Below, in pieces: positions 20,983 through 22,125 of a stretch of 64,000 nt of DNA. The notes beneath the pieces are model-generated. The model had not been told where the DNA came from. It made no database searches and saw only the letters and a list, made by a program, of their open reading frames with translations. Positions within the stretch are counted from its first letter, which is position 1. Every line of letters begins with the position of its first letter. The position numbers and the translations under genes are program-made. Where the stretch lies: the NCBI RefSeq assembly GCF_057098645.1, contig NZ_CM169472.1; one strand, 5' to 3'.

Positions 20983-22125
20983 TTAAATTTGCTTTTCATA
21001 CAATCGGTAACGCTTGTACGGCTCCGCCCCAATGCGTTCCAGCATGTTATTCATGCCTGTATTGGTTTCGAGGATCCATGACATCTCCAGCGCATCGATC
21101 TTCCGGCGGGCAAACGGATCGCGTAAGGCTTCAATCAATAACAGCGCAATCACCGGGCCGATGCGGCTGAACTGATACTCGTCCCGCACGCCCATCAGCG
21201 GTACTCGCGCAGTTCGCACACCGCTGACTTTCAAACGCCACAGCAATTTTGCCCAGCCGAAGGGAAAGAGCGATCCGTTCAGATCGGCAATCGCCTCGTT
21301 GATGTTCGGCAAGCCGACAATAAACGCGCAGGGTGCAGAATCAATCTCAGCGATATAGATCATATCGTCCGGCACCAGATATTTAAGTTGATCGCCCATG
21401 GTCGCGAATTCATGTTCGGTAAACGGCACAAATCCCCAGTTGTGCTGCCAGCCAGAGTTGAAAATCTCACGCAGGATCTGCATCTCTTCGGCAAACCGCT
21501 GGCGATTGATGCAGCGAATGGTCACCTTTTTGCGCACCTGATCCATCAGTTTTTTTAGCGCCGGAGAGAAAGTGAGATCGGTTCGCTGCATCCACCACGC
21601 CAGTAAATCAATGCCTTTGTGATAACCCAGTTGTTCAATATGCGCGGCATACCACGGTTTGCCGTGTGGCATCATCGCACAGGGTGGTGTGTCAAAACCT
21701 TCAATCAGTAATCCGCTTTCCTGATTGATATTCAGGCTGAAAGGCCCGCTGATCTTACTTGCACCTTGTGACTTCAATCACGCTTCCGCTGCGCCAAACA
21801 ACGCGGCAAAAACCTGCGGATCATCAATGGCGTCAATCATGCCGAAATGACCGGTATCTTCGCCGTAACACTCGCGGTGTAAGGTATCTATTTGCGCGGT
21901 AATACGCCCAACTATCTGCCCCGCTTTTTTTGCCACCCACGCCTGCCAGATGATATGGTCCGTCCCCGGATTCTTCGCAGACAAATGCTCGCTGCGTTCA
22001 ATGAATAAAGGGGGTATCCAGTTTGGATCATCGGGATAAAGTGATGACGGAAAAGCGATAAATGCCTTAAGGTCATTTTTATTAATTACTTTTTCAATTT
22101 TGATCATCAGCAGATCGCATTCCAT
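20983..22125 (-). pseudogene. yghO: GNAT/FemAB-like N-acyltransferase (yghO-like) interrupted by one in-frame TGA at 21778-21780
   Basis: Track ORFs 21778-22125 and 20983-21777 are contiguous in the same frame; split only by TGA (rc of tca at 21778-21780); reading TGA as Trp gives continuous ...FGAAEA-W-LKSQGASKISGPF... Confidence 0.7.

Follow-up and report, generated by a model that had tools for sequence, protein, structure and literature searches.

The stretch of DNA analyzed here (hereafter the window) is 64,000 nucleotides long and carries yghO itself in its customary position next to glcC. The gene is divergent from aasR-cerR-acpR-spt (22529-26580), and all of the cluster neighbors from aasR to yghQ are uninterrupted in the window (Table 1). 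The same cluster has been described in BL21(DE3) by Padilla-Gómez et al. 2022 (PMC9386255), who reported that ECD_02851, the ortholog of aasR, is active, that ECD_02853 (acpR) carries 4'-phosphopantetheine, and that ECD_02854 (spt) makes 3-oxo-sphinganine; the sphingolipid cluster of Caulobacter includes LptF2/LptG2 and a putative flippase. Across 5426 complete Escherichia coli genomes, a 24-kb region around yghO is covered to at least 80% in 4042, so that about three quarters of them have this sphingolipid-type cluster.

Table 1. Features of the yghO locus and of the adjoining sphingolipid genes, in window coordinates
Feature	Coordinates	Strand	State or remark
yghO pseudogene (predicted bacterial ceramide synthase ortholog)	20983..22125	-	381 codons with one internal stop; annotated by PGAP as 'protein YghO', pseudogene, 'internal stop'
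Premature TGA	21778-21780	-	tca on the plus strand; W116* in 380-aa numbering, W110* in 374-aa numbering
N-terminal fragment of yghO, still translatable	21781..22107	-	opening portion of the N-terminal GNAT half; 109 aa if counted from the probable start M7, 115 aa if counted from M1 (22125)
C-terminal remnant of yghO, 264 codons	20983..21777	-	remainder of the N-terminal GNAT half and the entire C-terminal GNAT half
aasR (fatty acyl-AMP ligase / specialized acyl-ACP synthetase)	22529..24217	+	intact
cerR/epi (NAD-dependent epimerase/dehydratase-family reductase)	24214..25128	+	intact; private E99K in the window
acpR (specialized acyl carrier protein)	25160..25408	+	intact
spt (serine palmitoyltransferase)	25408..26580	+	intact; protein accession shared with unrelated E. 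coli
Second copies of lptG and lptF (candidate sphingolipid transport)	26615..28761	-	intact; parallel to Caulobacter LptF2/LptG2
YtfJ-family protein, 274-aa hypothetical protein, yghQ ('lipopolysaccharide biosynthesis protein', candidate flippase)	28792..31537	-	intact

The first-pass annotation had described two open reading frames that are contiguous in one frame and parted by a single TGA, and this is borne out by translation of the minus strand from 22125 to 20983, which gives 381 codons interrupted by a single stop, at codon 116, ahead of the terminal stop. The two frames as listed (21778..22125, 115 aa, and 20983..21777, 264 aa counted from a TTG) lie in the same frame and abut directly. 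Because a random frame of this length would be expected to contain about 18 stops, against the one found here, and because both halves align end to end with a single protein family, the split of yghO is not a product of chance. When the TGA is replaced by TGG, a 380-aa protein is obtained that shares 99% identity with the common E. coli YghO, in agreement with the size of about 380 aa proposed earlier for the restored product. Enterobacterales homologs outside E. coli are 374 aa long and start at the residue matching M7, so that the true start of yghO is probably the ATG at 22105-22107, in which case the stop would fall at codon 110. Near the C-terminal remnant, the only in-frame start is the TTG directly after the TGA.

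Orthology and gene context mark YghO as the predicted bacterial ceramide synthase (bCerS/CerS) of E. coli. Its counterpart in Caulobacter crescentus, CC_1154 (= CCNA_01212, named aca in Padilla-Gómez et al. 2022), is an N-acyltransferase needed for dihydroceramide in Caulobacter and has been reported to be orthologous to yghO/ECD_02850 at 44% identity (E = 1e-107, 98% coverage; PMC9386255). The two are similar in length, at about 375-390 aa, and keep the same company, namely aasR, cerR, acpR, spt, and a second lptF/lptG pair. This published orthology, taken with the intact aasR, cerR, acpR, and spt adjoining yghO, upholds the earlier designation of the gene as the candidate N-acylating enzyme and places it in a sphingolipid cluster. 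In contrast to CC_1154, the yghO frame of the window is broken at codon 116, which makes this copy a pseudogene of the family rather than a working member. Similarly, the intact yghO of other E. coli (BL21(DE3) ECD_02850, WP_001300526.1) occupies the same locus beside glcC with 99% nucleotide identity but has TGG at codon 116, where the window has TGA. The family has thousands of members, and the representative relatives listed are mostly single full-length chains of about 370-400 aa. Full-length homologs at 44-49% identity occur in alphaproteobacterial and other MAGs; for example, a 46%-identical Kiloniellaceae homolog is found beside two LptF/LptG genes, a DAGK_cat (DAG-kinase-like) gene, a CDP-OH_P_transf (CDP-alcohol phosphatidyltransferase) gene, a fatty-acid hydroxylase, and an Spt-like aminotransferase, and another homolog is labeled by its source as 'associated with Serine palmitoyltransferase'. 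Eukaryotic ceramide synthases (Lag1/CerS, TLC-domain membrane proteins) share the proposed reaction, the N-acylation of a sphingoid base, but the bacterial enzyme is unrelated to them in fold and lacks sequence similarity to them, being a soluble or peripheral GNAT for which a place ahead of the reduction step has been proposed.

The assignment of YghO to the GNAT superfamily rests on fold rather than on a sequence profile, since the repaired protein had no Pfam match even at E <= 10, PF00583 (Acetyltransf_1) included, and both the NCBIfam search and the PDB sequence search came back empty; a few homologs at 80% identity carry a precomputed PF00583 match. The AlphaFold2 (AF2) model of repaired YghO, computed with the family alignment, reached a pLDDT of 93.7 and a pTM of 0.90, and its best Foldseek matches in the PDB were tandem GNATs (2wpx, 5kf1, 7q3a, and MshD 1ozp; E = 6e-15 to 3e-11). 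The model thus confidently predicts a tandem-GNAT fold with two fused GNAT halves for repaired YghO. The solved structures of this type, including the clavulanate-pathway protein 2wpx/2wpw, GlmA (5kf1), MAB_4324 (7q3a), and mycothiol synthase MshD (1ozp/2c27), share this two-half arrangement (Foldseek E = 6e-15 to 8e-11, TM about 0.55-0.7) but have only 10-13% sequence identity to YghO and different substrates.

Codon 116 is TGG in all eight of the diverse E. coli yghO alleles that were aligned, K-12 included, and exact matches to a 33-mer centered on this codon were found in complete E. coli genomes with TGG in at least 4205 and with TGA in 26, about 280 further yghO-bearing genomes having another SNP inside the 33-mer that leaves them unclassified in these counts. 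In a wider-family alignment of 36 sequences, the most distant of them at 31% identity, the stop column is occupied predominantly by Trp. Based on these three lines of sequence comparison, the stop is a derived, single-base nonsense change of an ancestral TGG. The TGA belongs to a single lineage: the 26 genomes that carry it, where named by serotype, are O145, O145:H28, or O145:NM; their yghO is 100% identical to the 1143-bp yghO of the window, and they alone show at least 99% identity over the 24 kb around the gene. The closest intact E. coli allele differs from that of the window at 9 of 1143 bases, and the O145:H28 allele has, beside the stop, only two synonymous fixed differences. The O145 isolates inspected came from cattle, people, and food in the USA, Belgium, Japan, Canada, South Korea, and Spain, and the presence of the identical allele in six countries indicates that the change arose before the sampled O145:H28 lineage diversified. 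The mutation had initially been taken as a recent event in this strain. Its nature as nonsense in an ancestral TGG codon stands, but it is not private to the strain; it is fixed across the whole sampled O145:H28 Shiga toxin-producing E. coli (STEC) lineage and is recent on the scale of the species only. The stop is also already on record as a routine lineage-specific pseudogene flagged in NCBI annotation, RefSeq/PGAP having marked yghO as a pseudogene with an 'internal stop' in 14 of the 14 O145 genomes inspected; a literature search combining yghO with O145 found no paper on the O145 allele.

Together, these data make it very probable that a lineage-fixed nonsense mutation has rendered yghO, the putative bCerS ortholog, a pseudogene in O145:H28. 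In the sequence of events that we propose, a G-to-A transition turned the TGG (Trp) at codon 116 into TGA in the ancestry of O145:H28 STEC and then became fixed. The intact product would be a tandem-GNAT N-acyltransferase of about 375 aa, responsible for attaching the second acyl chain once AasR, AcpR, and Spt have produced the long-chain base, and translation of the mutated gene would end after 109-115 residues, inside the N-terminal GNAT half, so that no complete enzyme could be formed. In the AF2 model, the stop at residue 110 (374-aa numbering) falls inside the helix spanning residues 97-113 of the N-terminal half, and strands 118-121, 133-136, and 163-174 of that half, as well as the whole C-terminal half, lie downstream of it. 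Residues that are invariant in the 36-sequence alignment occur on both sides of the stop, G67, F88, and L103 being in the N-terminal fragment. We infer from this that the acyltransferase activity of YghO, and hence any ceramide synthesis, would be lost. Because yghO is convergent with glcC, no polar effect of the stop on its neighbors is expected. Beyond the stop itself, no decay of yghO is visible, the gene having no polymorphisms among 14 genomes of the lineage.

Other readings of the TGA have to be weighed against inactivation. The first-pass annotation had allowed for a sequencing error, a view that does not hold, as the identical base is found in 26 complete genomes, with the inspected isolates originating from six countries. 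Selenocysteine recoding was also considered; no SECIS-like structure was detected, the 66 nt from the UGA folding no better than shuffled sequences (z = -0.26), an Rfam search of 20900-22500 returned no match, and relatives have Trp rather than Cys at this position. Artefact and selenocysteine recoding taken jointly are left with virtually no probability. A leaky stop is a more substantial alternative, in which a near-cognate tRNA-Trp would decode the UGA often enough to give some full-length, wild-type YghO, so that the pathway would be tuned down rather than broken. Of the stop codons in E. coli, UGA is the leakiest, and its readthrough by tRNA-Trp is well-known, although stop readthrough typically amounts to a percent or less. 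Insertion of Trp would restore exactly the ancestral residue, and the O145:H28 allele is without further decay, as this reading would have it. On the other hand, the base following the stop is U (UGAU), which, according to work attributed to Poole et al. in 1995, is reportedly not among the weak termination contexts; there is no stimulatory structure downstream; and the sequence bears no sign of selection for recoding, the rest of the cluster varying within the lineage as if unconstrained. Functional readthrough is on these grounds quite improbable.

It is likewise conceivable that YghO works in two pieces, with ribosomes that terminate at the TGA restarting on the neighboring TTG (TGATTG) and the resulting pieces of 115 aa and 264 aa reassembling, or with the C-terminal GNAT half working alone. 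The TTG stands immediately 3' of the stop, and a weak GGAAG motif lies 4 nt upstream of the TGA. In several tandem GNATs, such as MshD and GlmA, the C-terminal half is the catalytic half, and the YghO fold matches tandem GNATs of which some have this property. Against such a division of labor, the break is inside helix 97-113 and not in an interdomain linker, which leaves strands 118-174 of the N-terminal half on the second fragment, so that a reinitiation product would begin in the middle of a domain. Invariant residues flank the break, nearly all of the representative relatives listed consist of one full-length chain, and only one clonal lineage has the split. It is thus very unlikely that the two pieces form a working enzyme, and inactivation of yghO by the stop is the reading that we retain.

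Polymorphism within the O145:H28 lineage was compared across 14 members (the window and 13 RefSeq genomes), each polymorphic codon being counted once. The nine genes from aasR to yghQ (22529-31537) together have nine nonsynonymous and two synonymous polymorphisms and one frameshift, in the 274-aa gene of RM12275-C1, as compared with three nonsynonymous and five synonymous in the flanking genes and none and four, respectively, in yghR, yghS, and yghT. By Fisher's exact test, the cluster differs from the flanks at p = 0.07 and from the flanks plus yghRST at p = 0.012, this second grouping being post hoc, the numbers small, and some of the assemblies possibly containing errors. In the same 24 kb, three of the four SNPs private to the window change an amino acid, namely E99K in CerR (24508), V202I in LptG2 (27091), and Q66R in the YtfJ-family protein (29156); outgroups have the other residue at CerR 99 and YtfJ-family 66, and LptG2 202 is variable there too. 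This pattern is a weak hint that constraint has relaxed on the other sphingolipid genes, from aasR to yghQ. Such drift of the cluster would fit a pathway-wide loss of constraint, which might have resulted from the yghO stop or reflect a pathway that was already dispensable, and is at best suggestive of either.

The metabolic consequence of the loss of YghO depends on the order of steps in the pathway. In the model from Klein's laboratory (2024 JBC), cytoplasmic Spt forms 3-ketosphinganine, cytoplasmic bCerS acylates it, and periplasmic CerR reduces the oxidized ceramide. By analogy, since this bacterial order places bCerS before CerR, a bCerS null should stop at 3-ketosphinganine and not at a reduced long-chain base; a reduction-first order, or an E. 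coli CerR acting on the free base, would yield sphinganine instead, either outcome being speculative. It is of interest here that E. coli CerR (N-terminus at window 24214-24260) starts directly at the Rossmann motif MNQTVAVTGATGFIGKY with no obvious signal peptide, unlike Caulobacter CerR, which is reported to be periplasmic, and this difference matters for the intermediate to be expected in the absence of YghO. If AasR, AcpR, and Spt were still active, O145:H28 could end the pathway at a free sphingoid base rather than at a ceramide, in line with the free long-chain base proposed in the first-pass annotation. This agrees with the intact state of aasR, acpR, and spt, with the fact that Spt and AcpR of O145:H28 share their protein accessions with unrelated E. 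coli strains, and with the 3-oxo-sphinganine obtained when the E. coli enzymes are expressed (PMC9386255). However, the bacterial step order predicts 3-ketosphinganine and not a reduced base, and the excess of nonsynonymous polymorphism and the frameshift within the lineage fit a loss of constraint on the whole pathway, so that we regard continued synthesis of a free sphingoid base as possible but unlikely. O145:H28 could build up 3-ketosphinganine or sphinganine, or else show no effect if the cluster is silent or drifting. That O145:H28 STEC is a natural ceramide-synthase null that releases free 3-ketosphinganine or sphinganine, with a lipid output unlike that of most other E. coli, is a stronger claim that we consider improbable; were it true, membrane-active, host-like signaling lipids would be released by a pathogen lineage. 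From an experimental point of view, a fixed knockout of the acylation step in a pathogen lineage provides a natural control for whether E. coli makes sphingolipids.

The window is itself another isolate of the O145:H28 lineage or one very close to it. It has no identical counterpart among the 26 TGA genomes or any other RefSeq complete genome, with private SNPs at 24508, 27091, 29156, and 37939, and its identical yghO, combined with these SNPs and with a different structure to the left of about 9750, points to a separate isolate near O145:H28. A private 1-bp deletion relative to all 13 O145 genomes compared is present at 20078, between glcD and glcC. A 3-hydroxybenzoate/gentisate island (mhbT, gtdA, and a LysR regulator) with IS66 genes lies in the window on the left side of an IS3-family element (about 8431-9750), the matching position in strain RM9872 being occupied by a Flp/Tad pilus locus, and the winged-helix gene adjoining the element is shortened to 136 codons (9746-10156). 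Among the best matches listed for the 11.5-kb left stretch there was no complete genome of O145:H28, and the structure of 1-10156 could reflect an IS-mediated rearrangement or an assembly join. In addition, glcF (16177-17400) is intact in the window, encoding 407 aa with a CG repeat at about 17349-17358, whereas it is annotated as 'frameshifted' in 12 of the 13 O145:H28 RefSeq genomes inspected, which have two bases fewer in the (CG)n run; UTME-3 has an intact glcF, as in the window, but a frameshifted glcE. Either the (CG)n run truly varies within the lineage or some of the assemblies are wrong.

Damage to the yghO/sphingolipid locus recurs in E. coli. For example, strain LWY24 has a frameshifted aasR and isolate 131 a frameshifted yghO, and no yghO match is found in 878 of the 5426 genomes. 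In K-12, an IS5-associated deletion took the neighboring cluster (aasR to yghQ) and replaced the 5' end of yghO, a lesion that represents a different, independent inactivation of the same pathway. In K-12 AG100 (L003, 1952-4103), the 5' end of yghO is swapped at the IS5 junction, giving an alternative N-terminus that begins MISYQGLVRTFL.
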